Origin: Candidatus Riflebacteria bacterium HGW-Riflebacteria-1
GTDB lineage: Bacteria > Muiribacteriota > Ozemobacteria > Ozemobacterales > Ozemobacteraceae
Assembly (NCBI GenBank): GCA_002839445.1
Contig: PGYB01000022.1
Span: 242 to 64,241, forward strand
Length of the DNA: 64,000 nucleotides
Direction: 5' to 3'
Shown here: positions 19,453-64,000 of the stretch, one piece after another
How the letters are laid out: every line of letters starts with the position of its first letter
Numbering within the stretch: the stretch's first letter is position 1
Notes under the pieces: model-generated
Databases searched by the model: none
What the model was told of the DNA's origin: nothing
Seen by the model: the letters and a program-made list of their open reading frames with translations, nothing else
Position numbers and translations under genes: made by a program

Positions 19453-19873
19453 TTCCTTTTGGCCTTGAATCAAGGTCTTCGTTAAGCAGTTCCACCACTT
19501 TTTCCAGAGAACAGTCAGGGCCGAACACCCTGTCATAGCCCATTTTAAGAAACTTCTCTTCGACTTCGGCAAACGCAGTCTTGCCAACTACAAGGTTGCC
19601 GCCGACGTAGAGAAGGATTTCCTCAAGCCCCTTTTCGATACATTTTTCGCGCAGGCCGGCGCAGTCAATTTCGCCATGGCCATAAAGCGACGAAACCAGG
19701 ATAGCCCGCGCATCAGTTTCGATAGCGGCGCTGATAAATTCTTCCTGGCTGACCATGACGCCAAGGTTGGTGACCTTGAATCCGGCTTCAGTAAAAAAAG
19801 CTTCGAGAATTTTGTTGCCGACAGAATGGCAGTCAAAGCCGATTACGCCTAATACGATGTTTACTGGTGTCAT
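19445..19873 (-). CDS. glmS: Glutamate mutase sigma subunit (B12-binding)
   Basis: 142 aa. [18 protein letters not shown] (the DxHxxG cobalamin ligand motif) and [14 protein letters not shown] are colinear with clostridial MutS. Confidence 0.92.
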
Positions 19874-33087: not shown

Positions 33088-36000
33088 TTGACGGATTGTG
33101 GTAAATTGTCAGGCAACTGGCTGAAATTAATCACATCGGGGCGCAAAAGAGTGCTGGTAATTACTTCTAATCAGAGACAGACCGGTTTCGTCTGGGTTCT
33201 GCTGCTCGCCATTCTTTTGCTTACCCCGCTGGCCGGGCTCAATCACCTGCTTGATCAACTGCGCGCCAAAGACGAGAATTATCTCGACATGCAGGCGCGC
33301 GAGCGTCTGCTCAATGAAATGACTGCCTTTCAGGAAAGCTTGCAGGCCGAGAAACATATCTTGACTGCACTTGATCACATGCGCGATCATTTTGGCATAA
33401 ACATCGACAACGACAATTTTCGCAATCTTAGCTTTTCTTACGCAAGCGACCCGATGCTTATTCAAAGCGGCTTTCCGGCAAGCGCCAGCGAATTTCTCAG
33501 ACAAAATTATCACATTAACCCGCTGCTGGCCTACGCGGTCGACTGCGACATGCAAAATTTCTATTCATACTATTCACGCGAGATTTTCAGAGACGAAAAG
33601 CTGCGACGTGACTTTGAATATGCCACGGCCCACTGGATGGTATTTTCGCAACACGATGTTGTCAACGAACTGCCAGACACTCCTGACATGCAGACAATCA
33701 ATGACTCTTACAGACTGCGAAATGGCGCGGGCTATGAAAATGCGCAGCAAAGATTCCGCGAACTCTTTCAGCTCTACATCTCTGCCTTCGGTACCCCGCC
33801 CATCTCAAACGGCATCTGTCGGCCATTCTTTTCCAACCGATTCGGCAGCCAGCGATCGTTTCAGCTGATACATCAGATTTCGCGGCCAAAAGGCCTGAGA
33901 GTAAGCATGCTCGGTTGCTATTATTTTGTCTTCAACAGCAGCGACATTTCCCCGACGGCGGTATTGAAAAAGGCGATGAACAATATCGACCCCGCGATCA
34001 ACAGATATGTCGTCAGCAAAGAGGTAGAGCAGCCAGAGTTTGTCTATGGCAGCGAACACCTGCTTTACTACTCGGTTTTTCCATCGCATTACTCCACGCA
34101 TATCGAAGACTATGCCATCAATAACCCGAAGACCAGCAGCCTGCTTCGCGACTTTGTTGGCAGGCGTGGGCTCTGCGTCAGAATCGATAACAAGCTTCTG
34201 ATTTCACGCTACGTGCTGGCTGGAAAAGTCTGCAGCGCGTTAGCCAGGGCGGCGTTGCTGCTGTTTTTTGCCTTGCTGGTCAGATCTTACATGCAGGATA
34301 TTGAATATGGTCTGCGGCTGGCTAAAAAACTACGGGTTGCCGTCGCAATAATTGTGATGCTGCCAGTCATCGGTGTATTTCTGGTCAGTCGGGAATATGA
34401 AGCAGATAATGAGAAGCTGAGCCTGATCAAGTGCCAGACAAAAATCAGACGGCAACTTGATTTTCTCGGCAAACTGATTGGCGATTCCGACGCAAGAACT
34501 ATGCTGATGCTGCAGGAAAGCAAAGAAAAGCTCGCCTTGCGTCATTACCGACTCGAAAACAAAGACCTTACTGAGCTTACCAGAAAAGGTGACTTTTACG
34601 GACTTACCGCTGGAGCCCTCGAAGGGTCACTAACCAGAGATGGTGCGCAGATAATGGCTACGCAAAGAAAACTCCGTGAGAATTCGTCGATTCGCACCGG
34701 TCTTTATCAGATACTTTTAGATCTCGGCGCAATCAACGCAGAAGCGCCAGAAATAAAGAAGATACACCGACAACACACCATATTTATTGGGCTCGCCGGA
34801 GCTCTTACCAACCTGTTCAGCGAACCCGAATCACTCGCCCGCGAAGGTCTTTTGACCAAACACATTCTGTCGGCTTCGGCCCTGTTACGATCTGTACATC
34901 ATTTCATCGTCCACCCGCTTCGCCCAACTGTTATCGACGCGATTGTACTGCTGGTAATAGATGATATCAATATCATGAAGAAGATGTATGCGCAGATGTC
35001 ACAGGAGTCTTTGCACCTGTTCAGCGAATACGACGAAAACAGCCAGATTGATTACGCGCTGGCCCTGCGCAGCCCCACATCATTACGCACTTACCAGGCG
35101 CCAAATTTTTCGTCTCCTTCCAACCGAATGACAAATCTGGCGGCGGCCGCGGTTAACAACAAAACTTCTGGCTCTATAACCAGACGTGTTGGAGGTCAAT
35201 TAAAAATCGACAGCTGGACAATCTCTGACCTGAATCCGGTAATCATTTTGGCCAGAGCCACTCTTAACCATAACCCTTCGACCCATCTGCTGTTCGTTAT
35301 CATTCCGTGGGCGCTGCTTGTTTACGCTATTCTGGCAGTGACCCTTATATCTGACGTTCTCGCGGACATTTTTCTGGCACCGGTAAGGGCCCTGCTCACT
35401 TTTGTCAGCAGACTGCGACAAAACGACCTGCAGGTCAGAGTCATTATTCCCTCTGGGGGCGAGTTTGAAGAGCTTGGTATTTCGTTCAACCAGATGAGCG
35501 AAGGTCTCAGGCAGCGGGAAAAGATGCGGCGTTTTGTTTCTGACAAACTGGTATCAAGCCTTGAATCGCAGGGCGAATCACAGCAACCGACCCGTGCGGC
35601 GCTCAGCGTATTGAGTTCGGATATTCGCGGTTTTACCGCCTTGAGCGAACAGTACCCGCCAGAAGAGATAGTAAGTCTGCTCAACGACTATTTTTCATGC
35701 ATGGAAGAGGCATTGCAGCAGCATGGCGGTTCGATAGAAAAGATCGTCGGCGATGCGGTAATGGCAGCTTTTTACCGTGATGACCAGCAGGAATGCCATG
35801 CAGCAAGAGCCTGCAAAGCCGCGAGAGAAATGAAGGCCAGACTGGCAACATTTAACCGGCAACGCGAAGAAAACAACAGGTTCACGATCAGAACCGGAAT
35901 CGGAATCGCCAGTGGCGAAGCTGTGCTCGGCTTTGCCGCCGGAGGCTCAGGCCGGCGCGAGTTTGTTCTCATCGGCGAAGTAACCCACCGCGCTGAAGCG

Positions 36001-36144
36001 CTTGAAGCACAGACGAGATGGGCAAAAAATAGCGGTATATTCGTTGACAGCGCCACCGCAGCCATGTTGAACGAAGAATTCGCAGAGGTATGCATCGACA
36101 ATGGCGACAGCCAGATAAAATGTCTGGAGCTGAAGCATGTCTGA
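33088..36144 (+). CDS. Four-TM double-sensor HAMP / class III nucleotidyl cyclase, C1-like (metal-binding half)
   Basis: 1018 aa. HAMP region (APVRALLTFVSRLRQNDL...EFEELGISFNQM) followed by a cyclase domain (LSSDIRGFTAL, EKIVGDAVMAAF, IRTGIGIASGEAVLG, EFVLIGEVTHRAEALE). The start codon is uncertain. Confidence 0.85.
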   Translation: MTDCGKLSGNWLKLITSGRKRVLVITSNQRQTGFVWVLLLAILLLTPLAGLNHLLDQLRAKDENYLDMQARERLLNEMTAFQESLQAEKHILTALDHMRDHFGINIDNDNFRNLSFSYASDPMLIQSGFPASASEFLRQNYHINPLLAYAVDCDMQNFYSYYSREIFRDEKLRRDFEYATAHWMVFSQHDVVNELPDTPDMQTINDSYRLRNGAGYENAQQRFRELFQLYISAFGTPPISNGICRPFFSNRFGSQRSFQLIHQISRPKGLRVSMLGCYYFVFNSSDISPTAVLKKAMNNIDPAINRYVVSKEVEQPEFVYGSEHLLYYSVFPSHYSTHIEDYAINNPKTSSLLRDFVGRRGLCVRIDNKLLISRYVLAGKVCSALARAALLLFFALLVRSYMQDIEYGLRLAKKLRVAVAIIVMLPVIGVFLVSREYEADNEKLSLIKCQTKIRRQLDFLGKLIGDSDARTMLMLQESKEKLALRHYRLENKDLTELTRKGDFYGLTAGALEGSLTRDGAQIMATQRKLRENSSIRTGLYQILLDLGAINAEAPEIKKIHRQHTIFIGLAGALTNLFSEPESLAREGLLTKHILSASALLRSVHHFIVHPLRPTVIDAIVLLVIDDINIMKKMYAQMSQESLHLFSEYDENSQIDYALALRSPTSLRTYQAPNFSSPSNRMTNLAAAAVNNKTSGSITRRVGGQLKIDSWTISDLNPVIILARATLNHNPSTHLLFVIIPWALLVYAILAVTLISDVLADIFLAPVRALLTFVSRLRQNDLQVRVIIPSGGEFEELGISFNQMSEGLRQREKMRRFVSDKLVSSLESQGESQQPTRAALSVLSSDIRGFTALSEQYPPEEIVSLLNDYFSCMEEALQQHGGSIEKIVGDAVMAAFYRDDQQECHAARACKAAREMKARLATFNRQREENNRFTIRTGIGIASGEAVLGFAAGGSGRREFVLIGEVTHRAEALEAQTRWAKNSGIFVDSATAAMLNEEFAEVCIDNGDSQIKCLELKHV

Positions 36145-38992
36145 ACAGCTACAGATAATAACCAGCAGCAACAGGTCGCATACAGTAAGGCTTTTCGCCA
36201 TCTGGCTTTTTCTCATCGTCATGCCGGCGCTGGTGCTGGTTATCTCTTTCGACATGTTGCTCAAAGACAGCGAAGGCTATATCAAAGACACCCTGAAAAT
36301 CAAAATGGTGCAGGAACTTGGCGATTTCCGCAGCAAACTGAGCTTTGCCAGAATGGTCGAGCTGAAAATGCACCGACTCACCAGCAAAACCAGACTGCTG
36401 GATTCTGATGCCGAAAGCCTCGCCAGAACGATCAATCAGCAACTGCAGATACCCGCGGTCATTGTGTTTCATCTCAACCCGCAAACCGGAAAATTTTCGA
36501 GCCATGTCGCTGATTCAATCAGCGCAAGGCTAGGCATGCTGTCGCGAACCATGCTGCAAAACTATCTGACGAGTGTGCTCAGAAACAGCAAGACTCCTTC
36601 CAGGAGCGGTAGCGCCGAAAACCCCGCCGAGGCTGCGAAATACAAAAGAAGCCTCGCCTATCTTCGCAGTCTTTTCAGCACCGCCGGCGAAATAGAAATT
36701 ATGTTCAATCGGGCAACACCCTCTTTTTCTGGTCACCCCGAGCTTGGCCGCCTGCTTTTCTACGCTGTTCCGCTGGAGAATAGCGGCGCCGCCCTGCTGG
36801 TTTTCAGAGAAAACGATATTTCGCTACGCCAGCTCGCTGAGTTTGCCGCCAATGACCGGCTTTTCACAGATCTGCAGCGAAGCTTTACCCTTTCAGCAGA
36901 GGGGAGACAGGCTGTTTACCGACTCGGCAATGAAATGCAGCATTTCAGCGAAGCGGGCGATGGAGCGCTGGTAGTTAAGGGGATGGCCTCGGAAGAGTTC
37001 CTGCTTCGCCGGGTTAACAACGGCACACTCTTCCCGGCCAGATTAAAAGAAACCCTTGCCAACCCGCCCCTGCTGCAAATTACCGCTCCCCTGCCCTCAC
37101 AACAGCACCCACTGAGAAAAGTAACTTCACAGGCTGAAAAAGCGGCTTTACTGCTGGTCATTCTCGCATCGGTGCTGCTGCTGCGCATATTTCTGTTTGG
37201 TTACAGCAGCGGCCTGAAAATTCGCACTCGTCTGCTGCTCTGCGTGCTCGGCGCCTCGATTCTGCCATTCTCGACATTTATCGCCAGCATGGCTTACCAC
37301 GAACACTTTGTCGCAGAATTTGAGAAATCCGAGATCGATCAATACCTCAATCTGCAGCAGGACTACCTGAACAAATCGCTTAATGCCCGTATTGATGTCG
37401 AAGAGCGTAAAATGGCTGAACTTGCCGAGACACTCGGCCGACTCAACTGGCAGGAATCAGACAAATATCTCAGTGACTGGAAAAAGAAAAGTGTTTCAGT
37501 GCTGCTGCTCATCAGCTCTGGCGATCAAGAAAAGATTTACACAGACAGTCCTGATGAAACCCTTAACGCAACCGAAATCAGCATGAAGAATCTTAGTTTC
37601 ATGACGCTGAGAAGTGCGCTCAGGCCAATCGAAGAGAGCCCGCAAGGTGAAATAAAAGATACTGGAACTCTCGGGATCGGTGTCAGGGGACTCGGCATCG
37701 TTCTCGAAAATGTCGGCAAACTGCAGGAAACACTTTCTGACAATGCTGTAACCCTGTTTTCCTCGTTTCCGGTCTTTGCCGAAAACCGACGTTTCGACGC
37801 GCCCACGTCGCTTGTGCTGGTCAAATACTACACTGCAGACCTGATATATGATTTTCTTAAAACACATCCTGAGTTCACCAGGTCAGAAATCAGGGGAAAA
37901 TACCGCATTCAAAGCTGTTTTATTCCGATCAAACACGCTTTCAGACTGCCACCTGACCATGAAGCTATTTACAGCCAGGGCTTCTCACCCTCCAGATGGT
38001 CGCAGCTGGCACGCCATGTTCTACACAGCAGATCGACCTCATCGTGGTCTGACGAAGAATCAACAGCGGTAGCGAGTTTTCACAACCGTCTGCAATGCAT
38101 CATCATCAACACATCACAGAGAATCAGCAACACCGATTCAGGAGTCGGAGACGTTTTTCTGCCAGCGTTGCTGTATTTTCTGCTGATGGTTGCCGCCATG
38201 GTCATATTCATGGCAAAAATACTGATAGAGCCGATCGACATGCTTAAACGCGGCGCCGAACTGGTTGCCGCCGGCAATTATCAGCACCGGCTTGAATACA
38301 ATTCTGGTGATGAATTTGAACCCCTGACAAGCTCTTTTAACGAGATGACAGCCGGCCTCTACCAGCGCGAACTTCTCACCAGCTATGTCTCACAGGACGT
38401 TCTCAGCGAAGTCAGCAGCAGCATGACGCTTGTTCCTGGAGGCGAGCGTGTCGAGGCCAGCGTTGTCTTCTGCGCGCTGAAAGGGTTTAAAGAATTCAGC
38501 CAGAGCTCAAGTCCTGAACAGACAGTAAAAGTTCTCGGCCGACTCATCGAAGTTGCTGATCAGGTCGCCAACCAGCACGGCGGCGGCATGGACAAGCTGA
38601 TTGAAGACACGGTCATGCTGGTATTCAGACAACGCGGCAACGATAATGACCATGTAATCTCTGCCTGCCGGGCAGCGCTGGCGATCAGTCAGAGCCTGCC
38701 CGACGCCGCCGCCCCTTTCAACGTTGCCATCGGCATCGCCTCGGGAGCGGCAGTCTCGGGTAAAATCGGTTCAAAAACCGGCAAGCTTGATTTCACGCTG
38801 ATTGGCAACCCGGTCAATCTGGCGGCACGCCTCAAAGCGCAGGCGCATAAAGCTGTTAACACCGGCGTTATTGCCTGCCCGGCCACAATCAGGCTGCTTA
38901 AAGGCCAGGGGCGGCTGCTCTTTATTGAACGTACAGAAATAAAGGGAAGGTCGCGGACCTTCCCTCTCTATGAACTTGTTGAACTGCGCTAA
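36137..38992 (+). CDS. Four-TM double-sensor HAMP / class III nucleotidyl cyclase, C2-like (substrate/transition-state half)
   Basis: 951 aa. HAMP region (EPIDMLKRGAELVAAGNY...EFEPLTSSFNEM) followed by a cyclase domain (VVFCALKGFKEF, DKLIEDTVMLVF, VAIGIASGAAVSG, DFTLIGNPVNLAARLKA). The ATG overlaps the upstream stop by 8 nt. Confidence 0.85.
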   Translation: MSEQLQIITSSNRSHTVRLFAIWLFLIVMPALVLVISFDMLLKDSEGYIKDTLKIKMVQELGDFRSKLSFARMVELKMHRLTSKTRLLDSDAESLARTINQQLQIPAVIVFHLNPQTGKFSSHVADSISARLGMLSRTMLQNYLTSVLRNSKTPSRSGSAENPAEAAKYKRSLAYLRSLFSTAGEIEIMFNRATPSFSGHPELGRLLFYAVPLENSGAALLVFRENDISLRQLAEFAANDRLFTDLQRSFTLSAEGRQAVYRLGNEMQHFSEAGDGALVVKGMASEEFLLRRVNNGTLFPARLKETLANPPLLQITAPLPSQQHPLRKVTSQAEKAALLLVILASVLLLRIFLFGYSSGLKIRTRLLLCVLGASILPFSTFIASMAYHEHFVAEFEKSEIDQYLNLQQDYLNKSLNARIDVEERKMAELAETLGRLNWQESDKYLSDWKKKSVSVLLLISSGDQEKIYTDSPDETLNATEISMKNLSFMTLRSALRPIEESPQGEIKDTGTLGIGVRGLGIVLENVGKLQETLSDNAVTLFSSFPVFAENRRFDAPTSLVLVKYYTADLIYDFLKTHPEFTRSEIRGKYRIQSCFIPIKHAFRLPPDHEAIYSQGFSPSRWSQLARHVLHSRSTSSWSDEESTAVASFHNRLQCIIINTSQRISNTDSGVGDVFLPALLYFLLMVAAMVIFMAKILIEPIDMLKRGAELVAAGNYQHRLEYNSGDEFEPLTSSFNEMTAGLYQRELLTSYVSQDVLSEVSSSMTLVPGGERVEASVVFCALKGFKEFSQSSSPEQTVKVLGRLIEVADQVANQHGGGMDKLIEDTVMLVFRQRGNDNDHVISACRAALAISQSLPDAAAPFNVAIGIASGAAVSGKIGSKTGKLDFTLIGNPVNLAARLKAQAHKAVNTGVIACPATIRLLKGQGRLLFIERTEIKGRSRTFPLYELVELR

Positions 38993-54398: not shown

Positions 54399-55184
54399 TT
54401 AGAACCCGAAGTTAGCTCCAACAACATATCTGCTGGTTTCATGAACGCGGTCTGGAGTGTATAAACCAAAATCCAGGCTGAGTGCTTCATCAAAGCGATG
54501 GCGCAGACCCACGACAAAGTCGTTACCAGCGTAATCCATGGTCAGGATGGTATCCGGGTCGATATTCAGGCTGGCGCCCATTACAAAAAAGATCGGGTCA
54601 ACAACGGCGCCCTTTTCGGTGTAGCGACCGAAAGCAGCCTTTTTCTGATTCTCATTCATGGCGATATTGGTGCCGAGGCCGAGCACGACGCGGTTGCCTG
54701 GCAGGCCGTTAAGCAGCATCACCGAATTCTGATAGTCTTCATTTGGGTCAATAAAAGCTGCCACAGCCATATTTGATCGGATTTTATATTTGCCGGCAAA
54801 TACCGGGTCGGTCTGATCGGTCTTGCCGTCAATTGAGAAACGCTTTATTATAGCTACTTCGGCATCATCAGAAAAGGCGAAAACCCCTTTAAAAGAGGCT
54901 TCGTTGAATTTGGATTCGCCAATCATGTGCACTGCCGCGCGCGCACCGCCAGGCGGCAGCACTTCGAGACCTGGCACCAGCATTGTGCCGCTTAAGCCGT
55001 TGATGGTGGCGCTTGCCATGCACATCGAGGCAGACGCCATGAACAGCAGAACAAGAAGTATCCTGCCGGCAATAACAGATTCAGTAGCCTTCGATATCGC
55101 GCAACTTTTCGCGAATCTTTCTGGCCTCTTCGTGGCGTGGAAATCGATCGAGAAATTCCTGGTAGGACTTCCTGGCCTGATCAT
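54399..55184 (-). CDS. Probable outer-membrane beta-barrel protein
   Basis: Alternating-hydrophobicity strands and a C-terminal ...VVGANFGF (terminal Phe). The start is uncertain: ATG 55040 lacks a signal peptide, and ATG 55184 overlaps the upstream gene by about 100 nt. Confidence 0.5.
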   Translation of the reverse strand: MIRPGSPTRNFSIDFHATKRPERFAKSCAISKATESVIAGRILLVLLFMASASMCMASATINGLSGTMLVPGLEVLPPGGARAAVHMIGESKFNEASFKGVFAFSDDAEVAIIKRFSIDGKTDQTDPVFAGKYKIRSNMAVAAFIDPNEDYQNSVMLLNGLPGNRVVLGLGTNIAMNENQKKAAFGRYTEKGAVVDPIFFVMGASLNIDPDTILTMDYAGNDFVVGLRHRFDEALSLDFGLYTPDRVHETSRYVVGANFGF

Positions 55185-56307
55185 AATTGCGCAGTTCCTT
55201 TTCGTAAAGTTCACCTTTTCGCAAAAAGGCATCTGCTGATACATCGGCATTAGGATATTTTTCGGTTACCGAATTATAATAATTCAAAGCTTTCTCGACA
55301 TTCTCAACACTCTTACGATAGCGAACACGACCGTCAGACGTCGTTGTCTTTTTCATCGAATCAAGATCCTGCTCATAAATCCTGCCGAGACGATAAGTGA
55401 GATCTTCGGTGCCAGGGGCGTCAGGGTATTTCTGCATCATTTCTTCGAGCAGATCGGCAGCACCTTGATAATCTTTCTGCTTGGCATCGAGAACATCAAA
55501 CAGCTTGCGATAGGCGCGAACAGCTTCATCCTGATCGCCAGATGCCGCTATCGCCTGTCGATAAGCGCTGGCAGCCTGCTTAAAGTTTCCAGATTCTGAA
55601 TGCATGTCACCCAGGTCAAGACTGGCCTGGGCAGCCTGCTCGGCATCCGCGGTGGCGGCAAAATCTTCCTGGGTAGATATGGCATCGGCCTGAACACCGG
55701 TGCCGACAGAGAGCCTCTTCATACGTTCCTGGGCTGCGCTGAAGTAGGTGCTGTAGGCATAATCCGCAACAATTTTGCGATAATTTTCGGCCGCCTGCTC
55801 GATCTGGCCGATTGCTTCCTGACTGCTGGCGAGGTTGTAATAGACGCGGTCAATTGCCAGAAAGGCGGGGTGATCTTCAATGATACGCCGATAGATTTCG
55901 ATCGCCATCGGATAATTTTTAACACGTTCTTCATATACTCTTGCCAGATCATATAGAGTCTTAGGCAATTCCGGGCCGGTTACTCCACCAGCCTGCAGAC
56001 CACCGTTGAGCATTTCGGCGGCATCGCTGAAATTTGCCAGGGCACTGGTCATCTGAGCCTCAGCCTGTTTGATTCTGATCTTGCCTATCTCGACCATGGT
56101 CGAGGCATGAAATTTGCCCTGACCCATCAGGGGCTTAAGTTCTTCGACGGCAGCGTCATAGGCCCCTTGCGCCAATTGCTGCATCGCACGCTGAAATTCG
56201 GGCGTAACCTGAACGGGTTGAGCCTGTATACTGTAGCCTGCTAATAACATCGCTACTGTTAACAAGGCTGTAAGATTTGTTCTGAAATCATATTTGAAAA
56301 AAAACAT
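55081..56307 (-). CDS. Exported TPR-repeat protein
   Basis: 408 aa. Leader ...LLTVAMLLAGYSIQA and multiple TPR-like repeats (e.g. AIEIYRRIIEDHP, AAENYRKIVADYAYS, KALNYYNSVTEKYP). Confidence 0.7.
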   Translation of the reverse strand: MFFFKYDFRTNLTALLTVAMLLAGYSIQAQPVQVTPEFQRAMQQLAQGAYDAAVEELKPLMGQGKFHASTMVEIGKIRIKQAEAQMTSALANFSDAAEMLNGGLQAGGVTGPELPKTLYDLARVYEERVKNYPMAIEIYRRIIEDHPAFLAIDRVYYNLASSQEAIGQIEQAAENYRKIVADYAYSTYFSAAQERMKRLSVGTGVQADAISTQEDFAATADAEQAAQASLDLGDMHSESGNFKQAASAYRQAIAASGDQDEAVRAYRKLFDVLDAKQKDYQGAADLLEEMMQKYPDAPGTEDLTYRLGRIYEQDLDSMKKTTTSDGRVRYRKSVENVEKALNYYNSVTEKYPNADVSADAFLRKGELYEKELRNYDQARKSYQEFLDRFPRHEEARKIREKLRDIEGY

Positions 56308-56403: not shown

Positions 56404-57297
56404 ATGCTAAAAAATTCGTTAAATCAACAAGATAAAATGGCCGATGTAGATCTCACAGGCTATTCACATTCGACAGAGGAAAACATCGAAATCGAAATGG
56501 AATTTCGCATGTTGCCTCTCGACAGGGTTTACCCTAACCCGAATCAGCCGAGGAAGATCTTTGACAAACAGGCATTAGATGAACTGGCGCAGTCAATACG
56601 TGAAAACGGCATATTGCAGCCAGTTCTGGTGAGAAAGATCGGCGATCGTTATCAGATTGTATCAGGTGAGAGACGCTATCGTGCGAGCAAACTGGCAGGC
56701 GCCCGAACTATTCCTGCTGTCATCCGTAAACTTGATGAAGAGCAGACTCTGCTTGCCGGACTGATCGAGAACATACAGCGCCAGGATCTCAACCCCATAG
56801 AAGAAGCAAAGACCCTCAGGGACATACTTCTCAACTATGGTCTGACCCACGATCAGCTGGCTGAAAAGGTCGGTCGGAGCCGCTCAGCGTTGACCAATCG
56901 TCTGCGTCTGCTGCAGTTGCCCGTCGAGATCCAGGAACTGGTCATCACAGGCAAGATATCTTCGGGACACGCCAAGATGCTCGCCGGAATTAAAGATCCA
57001 CTAGAGGTGAAGACCTGGGCCAGGCTTATCATCAAAGACCAGATGTCTGTTTATGAGATCGAGAAACGTATAGCACAGAGTCGTACTGCGCACGTGTCAG
57101 GTGCGGCGCTAAAGAAAGGTAAGTCGTCGATGAGTCAAGATTTGCACATCAGAGCTGTTGAAGATAATCTTCAGGAACTTCTTGGTGCGAGAGTCCGCAT
57201 TCGTCATGGGAAAAAAAGCGGTCGCATAGAAATTGAATTCTACAACCGCGAAGATCTTGAGAGGGTCGTCGAAACAATGGTTTCGCTCTGCCCATAA
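56404..57297 (+). CDS. parB: ParB/Spo0J partition protein
   Basis: 297 aa. NPNQPRK, GILQPVLVR...YQIVSGERRYRA, LIENIQRQDLNPIEEA and the HTH block LTHDQLAEKVGRSRSALTNRLRLLQLP. Confidence 0.9.
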   Translation: MLKNSLNQQDKMADVDLTGYSHSTEENIEIEMEFRMLPLDRVYPNPNQPRKIFDKQALDELAQSIRENGILQPVLVRKIGDRYQIVSGERRYRASKLAGARTIPAVIRKLDEEQTLLAGLIENIQRQDLNPIEEAKTLRDILLNYGLTHDQLAEKVGRSRSALTNRLRLLQLPVEIQELVITGKISSGHAKMLAGIKDPLEVKTWARLIIKDQMSVYEIEKRIAQSRTAHVSGAALKKGKSSMSQDLHIRAVEDNLQELLGARVRIRHGKKSGRIEIEFYNREDLERVVETMVSLCP

Positions 57298-57324
57298 TTA
57301 CCATCGTGAAAGGTAAGTAGACCG

Positions 57325-58212
57325 GTGAGAATAAAATTCTGGGGCGTCAGAGGCTCGATTCCCACGCCAGGGAGAGACACGGTAGAATTCGGCGGCAACA
57401 CCACCTGCATGGAAATACTATCTGCAGGCAAAGAACGCATTATCTTTGACGCCGGTACCGGGATCCGTGTACTCGGCCTGGAGCTTATGCAGGCCGAATT
57501 CGGCCAGGGCAAAGGCAAGGCGCACATATTTTTCACCCACTCCCACTGGGATCACATCCAGGGCTTTCCGTTCTTTGCTCCAGCCTACATCGGCCGCAAA
57601 GACATGCAGGGCAACCGCCTCACCGATTTCTGCAACGAATTCAATCTGTATGGCGCCGCTGACGTAGGCGACCGGCTTGAATCAACTCTGCGCGGACAGA
57701 TGGACAACTACTATTTTCCTGTCGATCTCAATTACCTGTCATCAAGCATCAACTTTCGGACCCTCAAAAACAATCAGGTAACCATTGGCTCGATTACTAT
57801 ATCAGCGCTTAAGCTGGTACACCCGAATGGCGTACTCGGCTATCGCATCGAAGACGGCAATTCTTCGGTGGCACTTGCCACCGACTGCGAACACCCTTCT
57901 GACGGAACAATAGATCAGAATCTGCTTGAACTCGCGCAGAATGTCGACGTTCTTATCTATGACGGCCAGTACACTCCCGAAGAATACGCACCGCACAAGT
58001 TCAATCTGCCCGGCCCCGGCAAACAGGGCTTTGGCCATTCAACCGCCCAGGAAGGCATCAGGGCAGCAAAGGCCGCCGGTGCGAAACGCCTGCTGATTAC
58101 ACATCACGACCCGCTCCACAATGACGAATTCCTGCAAAATATGGAAAACGAGGCACGCAAGCTTTTTGCCACAACAGATTTTGCCAGGGAAGGCATGACA
58201 ATCGAGATTTAA
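57325..58212 (+). CDS. MBL-fold metallo-hydrolase
   Basis: 295 aa, GTG start. HxHxDH motif in FFTHSHWDHIQGF, and a distal ITHHD. Confidence 0.8.
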   Translation: MRIKFWGVRGSIPTPGRDTVEFGGNTTCMEILSAGKERIIFDAGTGIRVLGLELMQAEFGQGKGKAHIFFTHSHWDHIQGFPFFAPAYIGRKDMQGNRLTDFCNEFNLYGAADVGDRLESTLRGQMDNYYFPVDLNYLSSSINFRTLKNNQVTIGSITISALKLVHPNGVLGYRIEDGNSSVALATDCEHPSDGTIDQNLLELAQNVDVLIYDGQYTPEEYAPHKFNLPGPGKQGFGHSTAQEGIRAAKAAGAKRLLITHHDPLHNDEFLQNMENEARKLFATTDFAREGMTIEI

Positions 58213-58244
58213 CAACCGATTTTTTATGGTTGTGCAGAGATTGA

Positions 58245-61200
58245 TTGTGGTATGATGTGCATACCATGGGTAAGGCATCTCTTTTAACACCCGTTTACTT
58301 TTTCAGCTCGATCAGAGCTGGTTCTGGCAAGAGTTCAATGCTTGCCAATCTTGCAGTTTTCCTGAACAATATTAATCAGAAAATTGCAATTGTTGATCTC
58401 GACGCCGAAACTCCACTGAAGCTCAAAAACACTTTTCCACGCTCCATCAGCCTTCAGGAATACAGCGACATTTCACTGATCTCACAAAATCACGATTCGC
58501 GATATCAGAAGAATTTTTATTTTACTGAGACCAGCCTGATTTCATATTTTCCTGCGCATCAGCTCAAAGACGCTTCAATGCTGTTCAGCGACACAACTTT
58601 GCGCGATTTCTTCATTCAGATAACTGCCTGCTTTGATACGGTCATGGTTAACTTCCCGTCAGGAGCCTCGCACTGTCAGAAATCCTCTGATCTGCTCGCG
58701 CGAACTCATCTCTGGCGCGGCAAAAGTCCCGTTGCCATAATAGTGTCGCAGGCTGACGAAAAAAGCCTGGTAACCCTGGATTCGCTTATTCATGAGAACC
58801 CTGCCTTCTTTTATCAGCTGCAGGAAAACACACTTCTGCTGTTCAACCGTGTGCCGACTTCAGTAGAAGATCAAAAACTTTCAGAGAACACGCTCAACAG
58901 CCTCGAACTGCGCAGCCTGTTTAATTTTCCGGCAACTTACGTGGTGGGCATCAGCGAAGAGTTTCCTCATCAACGCCAGATTGCAGCGCCGCAGGTTCTC
59001 AACAAAGACTCGGTCATACACCAGACTATAGCGAGTTTTAATCGACTGCTTACCAGCACAGCAAGAAGTTTGAGCCGCGCAACATATGATCTGACCTCTG
59101 ATTATCAGGCCTGTCTCGACGGGCAGCTACTCGAAAAGCTTTCGCCGTATCTCGAAAAAATTCAGGCTCTGGCCGCGCAAAAGCTTTTTCAGCACCCCTC
59201 AGACGTTCAGGTATTTCTTGAAGAGAGCGAAGGCAATTACCGGATCAGAATCAGATTGACCGGCGTAAAACAGCCACTATCCGGCATTCAGCGCGTAATC
59301 GACCTTAACATTAACCGTCAGATTAAAGACCGCCTCTCGCCCGCGATCTGGCAATTCAGGCGCAATTTCGACCTGCCGGCAACAGCAGATATTTACCAGA
59401 AACCAGACAAGCCTGCTCTGGCTGTTAAGCCAATATACCGCTTTGACGATCGCTTTGCCGGTTCGCTCGACTTCAGACTGCGATGCGAGTTTGACTTCAG
59501 ACCCGAACGTGGCCGCTACCCGTCTCCGATTTTTTTCAAGGCCGCCCTTGAAATGCCCGAAATACCTTCACTATCAGAAGTTCTTGGGTACTCGCGCAAA
59601 CAATTCAAAAAGTGTGGTTTTGCAGCTTGTTCGCACCTTTACGCGATATCCGGGGTGACACACTTTTTCATACCTCCAGAATTTGATCTGTCAACCATTT
59701 ATAGCTGCGTTTTTCAGCAGATGTATAGCAGTGATCTCAAAATTTACACCCGCCAGACCTTGCGGCACGTCAAAGAATTTGTTCCGGCTTATCCAATGCC
59801 TGAATGCGTTTTAAGCATGCATGCAGAACTGCCCGATGAATTCGCCCGCACTAAGCAACTGCGCCCCGAAAGAGATTTTCTGGCACGAGTAAAGACTGTT
59901 ATTAAAGAAAATCTTGTAAAAGTCGCCAACGCCGCAGCCAGATTTCGACACAGCGAGCCTCTACTGGCATGCGGAGAGTATCTCGATCAGACTGGCGACC
60001 CCCCGTCGCTAAGTCGACTGACGATTCCGCCCATAATCAGGCTCAGCGCGTCGTCAAAGATTTCCCTTCCCGAGATCAGGGCCCGAACCAACGACCCGGC
60101 AAATCGTGCGTGGCGCGATAATTTTGTTCTTAGAAATATACTCGATGATATCTGCAAAGCCAATGAAACAGCGCTTTACAGCCTTAAACTGCTGAATTCA
60201 GGCATCGATAGCCGGGCAGCGCAGCTTGTCGGGATTTCATTCGCCCAGAAACAGAGCGAATACAGGTCAAATATTCTTACCAAGGCAATTCCAGATAGTC
60301 CGACGACATTTATTTGCGACTATATCACGCCGCTCACCGATAAATACGAGCCTTTACGTGAGCTCAATCTGCCCAGAGCGTTTAAATACGCTGATGTGAT
60401 GATAGACCATTACTTCGCGCCCGTGGTTTACCGACTTTCTCATAGAAACCAGATATCCGAAGAAAAAAGTTCGCGAATATACAATTTCAGTCACCCGGCA
60501 TTTTTTAAGCAAACCTATGCTGAACGTTCTGTCGAAAAGGCTAAATCAGATATCACGCTGCCGCGGCAGGCCACTGCGCACAGATTCGCGGCAGAGGGTT
60601 ACGACTACCACAACCTGGCCTACCGATCCCTGCGCGGAAAGCCAACCATGGCGCACCAGATACTGCCGGTTGCTTATACACAGGCTACAATCGGGGACTA
60701 TCGCGACATCGGCAATGCCAAGGCCACGCGAACAGACCATCTGATCGACGCGAGGGCGAACTCGCTCAAATTCCCGCCGCATAAAGGCAAAATTATTGAG
60801 ATAAGGGTTTTACTGAGCCGACCGCCGTCATTGAGCCATTTGCGGGCTGAGCGGCCAGTTTTCGCTGAAATTTCAGCCCAGTCGACAAAATATGTATACA
60901 GACACCTGTCAGGCAAGAAAGTGCCTGACAAATTTTCAGCTGCCGTGTCTCCTCATCTTCTGCAGATTATTAAAGAACTCGGCACAACAGGCGGACTGCC
61001 GTTTACCCCGTTCTACAGTTTTAATCCCGCTTTTACTCCGCCAACCATCCCGGCTTTTGTAATTGCAGATCCCGAGCTTTACACTATGCCGGTGCGATCA
61101 GGCAGTCGACAGATATGGCATTCTGTCAGCAATGAAATCTCCGACCGGATTGATATTGAAACCATGATAGAAACAAGCAAGTTTGCGCATCAAACAGTCT

Positions 61201-61829
61201 ATTCTGAAAAATTTGTGGAACCTGAATTCTTTTGCAAGCTGCCTGAGCACATCGCATGCGCTCTACGGGCGAGAAATATCGAACTACCACAGTCTCTTGA
61301 TTTTGGCGATTATCAGCGAATCAAAGAGGTTCTCGACCACGAAAGCACAATCTTTTTCTCTGCCGACAAGCGTTTTACCGCAAATTACGATACTTGCAAA
61401 CTCACTGCCAAACCGACTTATCGCCAACCTGCTCTGGCAAAGCAGTCACTACCGAAGGCAGCGGCAAAAATCTGGAAGCAGCTTAAACAACCCAGAAAGC
61501 AGTTCTGGGTTGTTTTTCCTGATAAAATCGCAACGCTTTACCAGCACCTTCTCTGGAGTATCTCTGCCAGACGTCAGCAAACGTCATTGTTCTCAGACTC
61601 TTTTCTCAAAAAAAGCGACGGCACGGCAAAAGCGTTTACCAATAGCGCAGCAGCTGAGACGCCAGACAACCCATTTTGTGACAAGGGATTCATGCCCGCC
61701 ACCAAGCTTTCGCAAAACTTTTTACGCACCAGCATAAAAGTAAAAAAATTGAGTCTCAAAGATATTATGAGTCTCGCCCGCCAGGCCAGTGAAAAATTCA
61801 GCCAGGTCAACAGTCAGCTCCGCGCATGA
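58245..61829 (+). CDS. Giant protein: divergent ParA/MinD-like ATPase domain plus ~900 aa of unknown function
   Basis: 1194-codon ORF (TTG 58245; first in-frame ATG 58266). The N-terminal ~270 aa carry SSIRAGSGKSSMLANLAVFL (Walker A-like), IAIVDLD and DTVMVNFPSG (Walker B-like strand). The rest has no motif I recognise and no obvious TM segment. Confidence 0.65.
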   Translation: MWYDVHTMGKASLLTPVYFFSSIRAGSGKSSMLANLAVFLNNINQKIAIVDLDAETPLKLKNTFPRSISLQEYSDISLISQNHDSRYQKNFYFTETSLISYFPAHQLKDASMLFSDTTLRDFFIQITACFDTVMVNFPSGASHCQKSSDLLARTHLWRGKSPVAIIVSQADEKSLVTLDSLIHENPAFFYQLQENTLLLFNRVPTSVEDQKLSENTLNSLELRSLFNFPATYVVGISEEFPHQRQIAAPQVLNKDSVIHQTIASFNRLLTSTARSLSRATYDLTSDYQACLDGQLLEKLSPYLEKIQALAAQKLFQHPSDVQVFLEESEGNYRIRIRLTGVKQPLSGIQRVIDLNINRQIKDRLSPAIWQFRRNFDLPATADIYQKPDKPALAVKPIYRFDDRFAGSLDFRLRCEFDFRPERGRYPSPIFFKAALEMPEIPSLSEVLGYSRKQFKKCGFAACSHLYAISGVTHFFIPPEFDLSTIYSCVFQQMYSSDLKIYTRQTLRHVKEFVPAYPMPECVLSMHAELPDEFARTKQLRPERDFLARVKTVIKENLVKVANAAARFRHSEPLLACGEYLDQTGDPPSLSRLTIPPIIRLSASSKISLPEIRARTNDPANRAWRDNFVLRNILDDICKANETALYSLKLLNSGIDSRAAQLVGISFAQKQSEYRSNILTKAIPDSPTTFICDYITPLTDKYEPLRELNLPRAFKYADVMIDHYFAPVVYRLSHRNQISEEKSSRIYNFSHPAFFKQTYAERSVEKAKSDITLPRQATAHRFAAEGYDYHNLAYRSLRGKPTMAHQILPVAYTQATIGDYRDIGNAKATRTDHLIDARANSLKFPPHKGKIIEIRVLLSRPPSLSHLRAERPVFAEISAQSTKYVYRHLSGKKVPDKFSAAVSPHLLQIIKELGTTGGLPFTPFYSFNPAFTPPTIPAFVIADPELYTMPVRSGSRQIWHSVSNEISDRIDIETMIETSKFAHQTVYSEKFVEPEFFCKLPEHIACALRARNIELPQSLDFGDYQRIKEVLDHESTIFFSADKRFTANYDTCKLTAKPTYRQPALAKQSLPKAAAKIWKQLKQPRKQFWVVFPDKIATLYQHLLWSISARRQQTSLFSDSFLKKSDGTAKAFTNSAAAETPDNPFCDKGFMPATKLSQNFLRTSIKVKKLSLKDIMSLARQASEKFSQVNSQLRA

Positions 61830-64000
61830 GTTTTAAAAAATCGAACAACAATGACGCTCCAATCTTCGATAAGCCGGCGCAAAAAAAGGCAACAGGCTTT
61901 TTTCTAAGAAGATTGATGAGCCTTGCCGGGAAACCGGTACTGGCAGAAAAAAACCTGCCGATAAGCCCTTCGACTGATGAGCTTGCAGAAAAGTGTTACG
62001 TCTGCAAAATGTCCCTGTTATATCGCCAGCAAAAAATCGCGGCCGCCAGACTTGATTTTAAGCCAACGGTAAAAGGTTATGCCGTTCCACAACATAGCAA
62101 TTTCGAGCATCCAGAGCGGTTTCGCAGCGAATTAAACTGTATTTCAGCAAATGGAGCAAAGCTGAAAACTGTTTTTGCCAACAGGGCCTTAGATACAGCG
62201 GTTCCAATAAAAATAAGCAAACATCACCAGAGCTTTGCCGAACGCTTTGACACCCACATAAAAGCAACCACTGCTTATAGCTTTGCGCCCACTACCGCAT
62301 TACCTGAACTTATTGGAACCCACGCAAAGCTCAATTCAATCAAGCTTGCGGAGACTTGCAATACGATTATGAAGTCTGCGCTGTTTTCGGGATTTAATAG
62401 GCGTCTGAACTGGCAACCGCAGGGTTTCAGTTACCCTGATTCCCAGCTGATTTTCAACTCGCAGTTTCCCGACACCGTCAGCGATTTTTTCAGGTATCTG
62501 CCCGAGCCGTGCAATTTTGCACTGTTTCCCGGGAATTACGGTTTTTTGCCGGCGGTGCAAACAGCTCTGTGCCGCATTGAGCATAACTTCGGCGAACAAA
62601 AATTTGCAACACAGGCACCGAAGTCGGCAGCGAATTTTGATCCGCGAATCGAGTTCGCGCGCAATCTTGTGATACTCTGCAATTCTTCGTTACGCCCGGT
62701 TGAGGGAAATGCCAGCGCTTCACATGCTAAGCCGCAAGACCCAGGACTGTCTCTTGAAGTGTGCAACAGGCAGCTCCACCCAATGCCGCGACACAGAGAA
62801 CGTCTTCAATGCTTGTTGACCGAAGTAGTTGCCCGGATAAAGGCCTCGCCACAAATTAGCTCGCCAGCGCTGCGCAATCTGAGGCTTTCCCCCGGACTGC
62901 AGGCAACCAGCGTGACGCAGAAAAAAGGTCCGTTCGCCGGCACCATGCTGCTAAATTTGGCCTGCCAGGCTTCACGAAGTCGCTTAAAACTCAGGTTGAG
63001 CCTCAAACACGCCGACTACTCAAAAAAAGTTCCCATGATGCAAACGCTGTCACACCACCAGATTTTTCAGTCGCGTATGCCTCTGCCAGCCAAAATAGCC
63101 AACAGCTATCTGCCTCTTGTTCTCGCCGAACCCTCAAAGAAACTGCTTATGCGATCTAAGCCAGAAGTATGCCCAAGCTATGCGGCAAGACGCAGCTCAA
63201 TGCGCTTTACCGCGAACCGGCATGCAAAATATTGCCGCAAGGCTCTGAAAACCATCTTCGAGGCGCGCACAACAAAAATCAGCGAGAATCATGTAAACAC
63301 AGACAACAGATATTGTGTCGCGAGTAAGCTCTCTAAGGCACAACGTTGCAGCGAAAGATTCGCTTCGAGCAAGCTTTGTAATGAAGCGATAAACGCTATC
63401 TATCTACGCTCAATGCCATTTTTGATGAAACTGAGCGCGATGCACTTTACCGACATCTTTCTTCCTGACGCGCAGCGGCGCGCGGTACCGGCAACAGCCA
63501 GCTTTTGCTCAGATCTTGCTCCCCTGCCCCTGCGGCGACGCAACACACTTAAATCGCTGAGATTCAAACTGACGCGCATCAACGATGGCTACGTCGCAGC
63601 CTCATTGCGCGCGCGACGCCGGATCCTGCAACCGTCAGAAACTTTCAGAATTCATGACGCCAGAACTGCGATAAAAATCACAGAGCCCACCAGACTGCCG
63701 GCAGGAACAGGCGAAAAGTTCTATAATCCCGGCTATAGGGGCAGGCTTAGCAGGTTTGCTCTTTCTGACCGCCTGCCTGGACAGATAAGCGACCAGCTGA
63801 AGCTTAGCATGGAGATTCTCGATAATACTCAGCGGGAGGATTTGCCACAAAGGCATTTTATCCATCCGGCAACCTGGGAAAAGGCAACAAGACCGCACAA
63901 ATGTCGGGTTATACTGGCTCCGCACCCGTTCGGGTTTCCGCATTTCCGGTTGCCGATCGACAATTTTCAGCTCGTCGAGTCCTCGATTTCTTTCAAATTC
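61826..64000 (+). CDS. Second giant hypothetical protein, 5' part (open to the window end)
   Basis: The ATG at 61826 overlaps the upstream TGA (ATGA). I translated all 725 codons to position 64000 by hand and found no stop. An in-frame TGA about 35 nt upstream fixes the start. It is absent from the supplied ORF track because it has no stop in the window. Confidence 0.6.
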   Translation, partial: MSFKKSNNNDAPIFDKPAQKKATGFFLRRLMSLAGKPVLAEKNLPISPSTDELAEKCYVCKMSLLYRQQKIAAARLDFKPTVKGYAVPQHSNFEHPERFRSELNCISANGAKLKTVFANRALDTAVPIKISKHHQSFAERFDTHIKATTAYSFAPTTALPELIGTHAKLNSIKLAETCNTIMKSALFSGFNRRLNWQPQGFSYPDSQLIFNSQFPDTVSDFFRYLPEPCNFALFPGNYGFLPAVQTALCRIEHNFGEQKFATQAPKSAANFDPRIEFARNLVILCNSSLRPVEGNASASHAKPQDPGLSLEVCNRQLHPMPRHRERLQCLLTEVVARIKASPQISSPALRNLRLSPGLQATSVTQKKGPFAGTMLLNLACQASRSRLKLRLSLKHADYSKKVPMMQTLSHHQIFQSRMPLPAKIANSYLPLVLAEPSKKLLMRSKPEVCPSYAARRSSMRFTANRHAKYCRKALKTIFEARTTKISENHVNTDNRYCVASKLSKAQRCSERFASSKLCNEAINAIYLRSMPFLMKLSAMHFTDIFLPDAQRRAVPATASFCSDLAPLPLRRRNTLKSLRFKLTRINDGYVAASLRARRRILQPSETFRIHDARTAIKITEPTRLPAGTGEKFYNPGYRGRLSRFALSDRLPGQISDQLKLSMEILDNTQREDLPQRHFIHPATWEKATRPHKCRVILAPHPFGFPHFRLPIDNFQLVESSISFKF

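Follow-up and report, generated by a model that had tools for sequence, protein, structure and literature searches.

What accompanies ParB at a locus where parA, the gene normally found beside parB, is missing? This question is raised by a 64,000-nucleotide stretch of the genome of Candidatus Riflebacteria bacterium HGW-Riflebacteria-1 (assembly GCA_002839445.1, contig PGYB01000022.1, positions 242 to 64,241 of the forward strand), referred to here in full as the window. On its plus strand, parB (56404-57297, 297 aa) is followed by a gene for a metallo-β-lactamase (MBL)-fold metallo-hydrolase (57325-58212, 295 aa) and then by two very large genes that we named giant1 (58266-61829, 1187 aa) and giant2 (61826-64000, at least 724 aa, cut by the end of the window). 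ParA/MinD ATPases serve bacteria as their general positioning engines; nearly all of them are small, active proteins that are not joined to their cargo adaptors. A preliminary description of the window proposed that the N-terminus of giant1 is a divergent ParA/MinD-like domain carrying a very large extension. It left two possibilities: a self-contained positioning or scaffold system, or a degenerate ParA that no longer hydrolyzes ATP.

At a probability of roughly 0.5, we favor the reading that giant1 is a nucleotide switch of the MinD/ParA type that hydrolyzes its nucleotide very slowly or not at all, is fused to a fixed-length scaffold or tether and is probably tied to the ParB-marked region of the chromosome.

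The N-terminal domain of giant1

The open reading frame (ORF) that contains giant1 spans 1194 codons from a TTG at 58245 to 61829, as previously described, and residue numbers are counted here from that TTG. All giant1 features given below are on the plus strand. AlphaFold was run on the full-length protein with 35 sequences and on amino acids (aa) 1-560 with 60 sequences. It predicted a P-loop domain at aa 14-275 (58284-59069) with a predicted local distance difference test score (pLDDT) of 80-95. Foldseek searches of the PDB returned MinD as the best match (4v02/4v03; E 3e-9, template modeling (TM) score 0.65-0.68), followed by other MinD structures (3q9l, 6riq) and by H. pylori Soj, BcsQ, ParA, FlhG and TadZ; across these matches, E ranged from 3e-9 to 1e-7 and the target TM score from 0.6 to 0.68. 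In hhalign comparisons, the match of a 60-sequence giant1 profile to E. coli MinD took in the entire domain (aa 17-286; 94.4%, E 9e-8), and B. subtilis Soj was matched at 67.8%. One bacterial tyrosine (BY)-kinase domain reached 97.5% with 32% identity, over aa 6-143 only.

The preliminary description had allowed for an N-terminus without any match to ParA/MinD models. We observed that CbiA matched 32 of 35 giant1 homologues, with a best E of 4.5e-9 and some members passing the curated cut-off. The window protein alone scored lower (CbiA 7.6e-4, 19.9 bits vs. a cut-off of 25.4) and was far below the curated cut-offs of minD_bact (15.6 vs. 212.9) and ParA_partition (13.7 vs. 180). Its further sub-threshold matches, BcsQ and a KGGVGR-variant AAA model, likewise lay over the P-loop. 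The closest sequences outside the family, among 1.84 billion representatives, were small MinD-like proteins with the P-loop S-x-R-G-G-T-G-K-T and BY-kinase domains of the Wzc type. Against PDB sequences, the profile matched Mrp/NBP35, CapB, MinD, Soj and MipZ, all weakly and about equally, and one giant1 homologue weakly matched the MipZ Pfam model. Automated annotation labels some members “ParA family protein” or “MinD-like ATPase”. These data place the N-terminal domain in the MinD/ParA/Mrp/BY-kinase assemblage. The SIMIBI-class MinD/ParA fold proposed earlier for the first ~270 residues therefore stands. A firm “ParA” label does not, since MinD, Mrp, CapB, Soj and MipZ give similarly weak scores and the whole-domain profile is nearer to MinD than to Soj.

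Behind the domain, AlphaFold appended a family-specific helix (aa 293-314) and β-hairpin (aa 321-338; together 59100-59264) with pLDDT 74-84. The Foldseek alignments were no longer than their targets of ~240-260 residues, so this appendage is unaccounted for by them.

The three motifs on which the ParA/MinD assignment had been based are all present: SSIRAGSGKSS at the P-loop (58305-58337), IAIVDLD at switch I/Walker A′ (58383-58403) and DTVMVNFPSG within the Walker B-equivalent strand FDTVMVNFPSG (58632-58664). By hhalign, R24-A-G-S-G-K29-S30 mapped onto K-G-G-V-G-K-T, and D51-L-D53 mapped onto the switch I DxD (D42/D44 in Soj, D38/D40 in MinD). Against both MinD and Soj, N136 (codon 58650-58652) was placed at the Walker B Asp (D120 in MinD, D125 in Soj). 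This replacement of Asp by Asn adds to what had been described before.

We then counted residues at these positions in 60 homologues (59 at some positions). The Walker B position was Asn in all 60. The Mg-coordinating position 30 was Ala in 30, Ser in 25 and Thr in 4 of 59 sequences, with Ser in the window protein. Position 24, that of the signature Lys, was Arg in 42 members, Lys in 5, Ser in 5, His in 3, Leu in 2, Gln in 1 and Ala in 1, and the P-loop residue that follows it was Ala rather than Gly in 38. The deviant Walker A xKGGxGK[ST] with its signature Lys is thus absent from the window protein (R-A-G-S-G-K-S), and the Arg already noted in its place is one of several residues that the family admits there. 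G28 and K29 were unchanged (59/59), D51 and the base-contacting N201 were kept (60/60), and D179 was invariant as well. D53 was retained in 45 of 60 homologues, including the window protein, and was N, A or H in the other 15.

Judged by what is established for the superfamily, the residues that giant1 keeps serve to hold the phosphates and the base, and those that have changed serve to coordinate Mg, activate water and complete the partner's site across the dimer. Because the binding residues are retained and the Mg, water and cross-dimer residues are altered, we infer that the N-terminal domain probably binds nucleotide without hydrolyzing it efficiently. The residue counts thus favor the degenerate ATPase among the possibilities raised earlier. 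Loss of the signature Lys alone is not decisive: type 1 McdA, which lacks that Lys, is very active (PMC7182216).

The tail of giant1

The remaining ~850 residues behave differently from the N-terminal domain. Searches of Pfam, NCBIfam, PADLOC and PDB profiles with the window protein, 35 homologues and the 35- and 60-sequence profiles returned matches over the P-loop only, and no known family in the tail. This agrees with the preliminary description, which had named no motif beyond the first ~270 residues. We found no transmembrane helix in giant1 (highest 19-residue Kyte-Doolittle mean, 1.18) and no internal repeats in aa 281-1194 (tile-against-tile hhalign, best probability 3%). The richness in R, K, F, P and S that had been remarked upon was borne out by measurement: aa 546-1160 contain 6.7% R, 7.0% K, 5.5% F, 7.0% P and 8.3% S, together with 10.1% A, and the net charge is +23.

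The tail has two main parts and a conserved end. The first part, aa 341-540 (59265-59864), is rich in strongly conserved short motifs (KPVYxFDDxF, PSPIxF, EIPSLSxILG, GVTHFFIPPEF, PDxFARN). Its length among homologues is 195 ± 1.6 residues, and AlphaFold gave it pLDDT 45-60 with almost no regular secondary structure. The second part, aa 541-1160 (59865-61724; ~620 residues), is hypervariable in sequence and fixed in length, and AlphaFold left it unstructured (pLDDT 30-45). Neither of the two AlphaFold runs produced a confident fold beyond aa 340. At the extreme C-terminus, the segment VKKLSLKDIMSLARQASEKFSQVNSQLR (61740-61823) is conserved and amphipathic, with a hydrophobic moment of up to 0.6, and AlphaFold predicted aa 1171-1193 to be helical.

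Identity to the window protein follows these divisions. It was 44-92% in the N-terminal domain and 21-75% in the motif-rich region, fell to 11-18% between clades in the variable region, that is, for all but the closest relatives, and rose again at the C-terminus. The spacing from R535 to D1173 was nevertheless 641 ± 4.3 residues across 33 sequences; the stretch between these anchors, aa 536-1172, lies at 59850-61763 of the window. Anchor distances within the variable region were constant to within 1-3 residues (F754-F781, 27 ± 0.7; P1006-L1102, 95 ± 1.5). When clades were registered on these anchors without gaps, hydropathy correlated at 0.08-0.29, compared with 0.60 for the N-terminal domain and 0 for shifted controls.

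On whether the tail (aa 341-1165) is a classic disordered region, the evidence points both ways: the pLDDT of 30-60 and the near lack of secondary structure fit disorder, and the composition and the scarcity of net indels do not. The charge-hydropathy plot put the tail mostly in the “folded” range. Because of this hydropathy, and because the anchor spacing is fixed despite the drift in sequence, we do not call the tail disordered. These data point to selection on geometry, that is, on length and anchor spacing, and not on most side chains. No explanation considered here fully accounts for this pattern.

We also compared giant1 with giant2. Homology between the two was rejected (hhalign probability 0.1%). 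Relatives of giant2 are 1247-1425 aa long and carry short conserved motifs in a fast-evolving background. We found no known domain in giant2, which evolves even faster than giant1. In the closer clades, a [DE]-x-F-A-R-[NT] motif is common to giant1 (aa 533-536, 59841-59852) and giant2 (aa 277-280, 62654-62665). By its sequence, it could be a shared docking motif or a chance resemblance.

The gene module and its ParB

A word-indexed search recovered 44 giant1 homologues, nearly all ~1190 aa long; wherever an organism name was attached, it was Riflebacteria, except for one partial record labeled Erysipelotrichia. An exhaustive hidden Markov model search of the 1.84 billion representatives gave 68 matches, of which ~64 were family members or fragments. 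The most divergent relatives (1162-1863 aa) matched the profile over no more than its first 450-535 positions. When one genome per species was scanned, 31 loci came up, all in riflebacterial metagenome-assembled genomes (Rifleibacterium, Ozemobacter, Ozemobacteraceae). The giant1 family is restricted to one phylum, Riflebacteria. Three loci (L016, L021 and L024) carry the labels “Erysipelotrichia bacterium” or “Candidatus Avigastranaerophilus sp.” and contain the riflebacterial cluster with full synteny; these labels probably reflect mis-binning or mislabeling.

We determined gene order from gene calls and a tblastn survey of 37 loci, each taken within 10 kb on either side of a match. One strand carries scpB-scpA-trpS, a tetratricopeptide repeat (TPR) gene, a gene for a protein of no assigned function, a GYP-type HD gene, a gene for a predicted outer-membrane protein and a second TPR gene. 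The other strand carries parB, the MBL gene, giant1, giant2, a PP2C phosphatase gene, a coiled-coil gene (~540 aa) and a gene for a 712-aa protein with 20 TPRs. Of the 29 loci whose upstream DNA reached far enough, 28 kept the order parB-MBL-giant1, across giant1 identities of 25-93%. The MBL gene lay directly upstream of giant1 in every locus with enough sequence, and giant2, the PP2C gene, the coiled-coil gene and the TPR gene came next in most loci that reached far enough downstream. The linkage to an orphan parB that had been pointed out earlier is therefore conserved across the phylum. The suggestion of a self-contained system did not hold, as giant1 is one gene of the module MBL-giant1-giant2-PP2C-coiled coil-20xTPR. 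The single exception to the parB linkage was the most divergent lineage, locus L005 (2191-2510), in which a TPR gene faces MBL-giant1-giant2-PP2C-...-TPR without parB.

The partners differ widely in conservation. The 712-aa protein with ~20 TPRs (L001:19925-22063; present likewise in L002-L033) shows a full-length identity of 81-99% throughout the phylum, compared with 56-93% for ParB, 25-93% for the giant1 N-terminal domain and 44-100% for the PP2C phosphatase. This conservation is unusually strong for a repeat protein. The MBL enzyme has an intact HxHxDH motif (Lactamase_B_2, 1.3e-20); RNase Z and a cyclic-nucleotide phosphodiesterase were matched weakly. Its closest relatives outside Riflebacteria (48-50% identity; L038:8001-12449, L039:8001-12282) are followed by a ~375-aa gene of no assigned function and a CHASE2 adenylate/guanylate cyclase gene. 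These neighbors, together with two tandem HAMP-cyclase genes in the window, hint that the MBL enzyme may be a cyclic-nucleotide phosphodiesterase. We rejected the idea that the cluster is a defense system, as there were no meaningful PADLOC matches. A literature search found no paper on the giant1 family or on riflebacterial cell biology.

The parB gene itself is canonical, as the preliminary description held, and its product is of the ParB/Spo0J CTPase type. It matched ParB_N (1.6e-34), HTH_ParB (2.1e-31), ParB_C (3e-10) and NCBIfam parB_part (194 bits vs. a cut-off of 58), and it encodes GERRYRA at aa 88. Riflebacterial ParBs keep this cytidine triphosphate-binding box (GERRxRA) and the C-terminal dimerization domain. 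ParB proteins usually have a conserved ParA-binding motif of the LG[RK]GL type at the N-terminus (PMC12462528). This motif, sought as G[LIVM]G[RK]G[LIVM], was absent from the window ParB and four riflebacterial orthologues and present in B. subtilis Spo0J in the same alignment. The place where parA normally would be is taken, as described earlier, by a divergent TPR gene (YfiO/BamD-like; 55081-56307, minus strand; ORF list and domain matches), which has the same position in 27 related loci. Using B. subtilis Soj and E. coli MinD as tblastn queries, we found no homologue of either in the 64-kb window, in the 37 loci of the survey or in the set of 39 related loci, 664 kb in all.

We also looked for the DNA sites that such a ParB would bind. 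The parS consensus TGTTNCACGTGAAACA had 0 sites at up to 3 mismatches in the window and 0 at up to 2 mismatches in 664 kb (the window and related loci). The exact 14-mer parS core was not found in six loci, and no recurrent 14-bp palindrome was found in the 664 kb. Candidates with 3 mismatches, GTTTCnGGTGAAAGA (L004:8404, L011:8426, L017:8427), were rejected; they lie inside parB and represent codons of the conserved VSGER. The missing ParA-binding motif and the lack of parS sites in the DNA searched are both consistent with a ParB that has no classical ParA to drive.

Within the window, parB and the MBL gene are separated by 27 nt and the MBL gene and giant1 by ~50 nt, and we found no terminator-like site between parB, MBL and giant1. 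The stop of giant1 is overlapped by 4 nt (ATGA) by the start of giant2 at 61826, a second giant gene that the preliminary description did not include; giant2 is called here from its open frame and from synteny. The 22 nt before ATG 58266 are conserved as DNA in ten loci (T-x-T-G-n-T-A-n-n-A-T). They include an extended -10-like box (TGnTAnnAT; tgtgGTATGAT at 58246-58256, plus strand, in the DNA alignment of the 10 loci) that ends 9 nt upstream of the giant1 ATG. The true start of giant1 is almost certainly this ATG (Met8, 1187 aa), and the database homologue P0001 has the matching length of 1187 aa. The peptide MWYDVHT upstream of Met8, which some annotations include, appears conserved because the -10-like DNA box is. 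By its match to the consensus, the box is probably giant1's own promoter, and the mRNA made from it would be leaderless or nearly so.

The rest of the window includes the methylaspartate pathway, an electron transfer flavoprotein, an acyl-CoA dehydrogenase, two HAMP-cyclases, scpA/scpB and trpS; no origin-type genes were found within the 64 kb. The methylaspartate pathway of glutamate fermentation (13943-19587, minus strand) comprises a MutL-type reactivase, the mutase E chain, methylaspartate ammonia-lyase and an AtuA-like protein, and a fumarate hydratase gene adjoins this set. The two HAMP-cyclase genes are in tandem (33088-38992). A 283-aa ORF (54399-55250, minus strand) overlaps the 3′ end of the divergent TPR gene by 170 nt. 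Gene calls for its orthologues give 231-254 aa, which makes an internal position of the true start probable. The product has a signal-peptide-like N-terminus and ends in ...ANFGF, as in outer-membrane β-barrels.

Weighing the explanations

In the explanation we favor, the N-terminal domain would bind nucleotide and dimerize with it, acting as a slow or non-hydrolyzing switch and not as a partition motor stimulated by ParB. The ~850-residue tail would be a scaffold or tether of defined length, with short motifs and a terminal amphipathic helix. It would recruit, or be bound by, giant2, the PP2C phosphatase, the coiled-coil protein and the 20-repeat TPR protein. Because the module lies directly downstream of an orphan parB and near scpA/scpB in almost all lineages, its most likely role is to organize or anchor the ParB-marked chromosome region, or to couple it to another cell structure.

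Known systems offer partial precedents. MipZ of Caulobacter, as we propose for giant1, is a MinD/ParA-type protein that works with ParB and is not a partition motor (PMC7229837). Unlike giant1, it is an active ATPase of ~280 aa with a canonical deviant Walker A and Walker B, and we found no specific sequence similarity between the two (PDB MipZ, E 0.19). PomXYZ of Myxococcus and McdAB resemble the giant1 module in combining a MinD/ParA-type protein with large coiled-coil, repeat or low-structure proteins. Type 1 McdA, like giant1, is without the signature lysine (PMC7182216). In both systems, however, the ATPase is separate, active and ~200-420 aa long, whereas the degenerate domain of giant1 is covalently joined to its extension, and the partners are non-homologous. 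In PomXYZ and McdAB alike, a ParA-like ATPase works with large scaffold or condensate-forming partners. TadZ/CpaE (PDB 3fkq, one of the Foldseek matches) is a precedent for a fused, poorly hydrolyzing MinD/ParA-type domain that serves as a localization hub and has an atypical Walker A; its fusion partner differs from that of giant1 in being N-terminal and receiver-like, its genes are found among pilus genes, and its size is different.

Several points weigh against the favored explanation. The organisms are uncultured, and function is read here from sequence and predicted structure. The Asn at Walker B and the Ala after the P-loop Lys speak against hydrolysis without proving its loss, and nucleotide binding is itself deduced from conserved residues. 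The absence of a parS consensus applies to the 664 kb around these parB genes, and sites elsewhere are possible; the search for parA covered the window and the surveyed loci, and a canonical parA elsewhere is likewise possible. The low AlphaFold confidence over aa 341-1165 may reflect a shallow alignment (35-60 sequences) and not a lack of fold, and so few indels would be expected more of a chain that is folded or under some other geometric constraint. It is gene order that ties giant1 to ParB, and the conserved -10-like box suggests that giant1 may be transcribed on its own. Given the parB-less module of L005 and the apparent promoter of giant1, we infer, and do not take as shown, a functional tie between giant1 and ParB.

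These last observations lead to the alternative that survives best, one that we regard as unlikely but credible. The module may be unrelated to ParB and form a phylum-specific cytoskeletal, envelope or cyclic-nucleotide-regulated assembly, with ParB acting alone as an SMC loader. Streptococcus pneumoniae is a bacterium of this type, with ParB as SMC loader and no ParA. The L005 locus and the -10-like box before giant1 agree with such independence. So do the CHASE2 nucleotide cyclase genes that adjoin the MBL relatives outside the phylum and the HD-GYP-type gene in the divergent operon, and the nearby scpA and scpB fit a ParB-SMC role that needs no ParA. However, parB stands directly upstream of the module, 27 nt from the MBL gene and with no terminator between them, in 28 of 29 loci whose giant1 proteins have diverged to 25-93% identity, and non-motor MinD/ParA-type partners of ParB do exist (MipZ, PMC7229837).

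A working ParA is improbable. Under this explanation, giant1 would form a nucleoid-bound ATP dimer, be stimulated by ParB and segregate the origin in a riflebacterial ParABS system, with the tail as an accessory. The superfamily fold (6iub, 8ray and 2bek matched) and the linkage to a canonical parB are shared with ParA/Soj, the 664 kb surrounding these parB genes yielded no other ParA/MinD gene, and Arg could replace the signature Lys, given that type 1 McdA works without it (PMC7182216). Against this, the catalytic residues are replaced: Walker B is Asn throughout, half of the members have Ala for the Mg-coordinating Ser/Thr, the signature position is variable and the second Asp of switch I is lost in a quarter. 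The neighboring ParB is without the ParA-binding peptide, the profile match to Soj is weaker than that to MinD, and one lineage has the module without parB. In addition, giant1 lies two positions downstream of parB and not directly upstream, and it is ~4 times the size of ParA.

We give an equally low probability to giant1 being a MinD-derived, membrane-associated spatial regulator that positions division or a polar structure, with the terminal helix as its membrane-targeting sequence. MinD is the best structural and whole-domain profile match. Like giant1, MinD has a P-loop, a switch I DxD and an xPxG behind Walker B and ends in an amphipathic helix, and an FNRVP motif in giant1 resembles the “NR” motif, a feature of MinD/FlhG-type proteins. 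The helix of giant1, however, extends over ~25 residues in a heptad-like pattern, whereas the targeting helix of MinD has ~10, and ~890 residues lie between the domain and the giant1 helix. Neither minC nor minE is present in the cluster, and scores are below the curated MinD model thresholds. The signature Lys is unconserved, Asn replaces the Walker B Asp and half of the members have Ala for the Mg-binding Thr. The catalytic residues for a MinE-type cycle are missing.

That the domain is a BY-kinase-type tyrosine autokinase with the tail as its substrate is very improbable: the N-terminal half is strongly similar to Wzc and CapB (S-S-x-R-x-G-x-G-K-S...ANLAV...DxDxxxP), CapB is among the best PDB sequence matches and a phosphatase gene lies in the operon, but the similarity is limited to that half and to comparators that were the best picks out of 1.84 billion, Asn stands in place of the Walker B Asp, the Arg of Walker A′ (DxDxR) is missing (VDLDAETP in the window), there is no transmembrane activator and no C-terminal tyrosine cluster (0 Tyr in the last 34 aa), and the phosphatase is of the Ser/Thr-type PP2C and not a low-molecular-weight protein tyrosine phosphatase or PHP enzyme.

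The favored explanation, a slow or non-hydrolyzing switch on a fixed-length scaffold, can be taken further to a bolder form that we consider doubtful. Riflebacteria may have swapped the ParA motor for a tether of fixed geometry, consisting of a dead MinD/ParA-type dimerization head, a ~640-residue spacer whose length is held to ~1% and whose sequence is free, and an amphipathic anchor. Together with giant2, PP2C, the coiled-coil protein and the 20-TPR protein as a hub, it would form a phosphorylation-regulated apparatus that holds the ParB-origin complex or other cargo at a set distance from the membrane or pole. If true, this would be a molecular-ruler chromosome organizer without a described counterpart.

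The MinD/ParA domain class of giant1 is already known. What is new is its systematic catalytic degeneration, its covalent joining to a very large chain selected for length only, a neighboring ParB that has lost its ParA-binding peptide and a module conserved throughout a phylum. If the domain still binds nucleotide, giant1 would be a natural case of a MinD/ParA switch turned into a static scaffold, and it would show chromosome organization working without a ParA ratchet. The tail is of interest to protein evolution, as it combines fixed length and anchor spacing with essentially random sequence. Unknown gene families are reported to be denser in Riflebacteria than in any other phylum (PMC10849945), and the giant1 cluster offers a concrete, testable entry into their cell biology.

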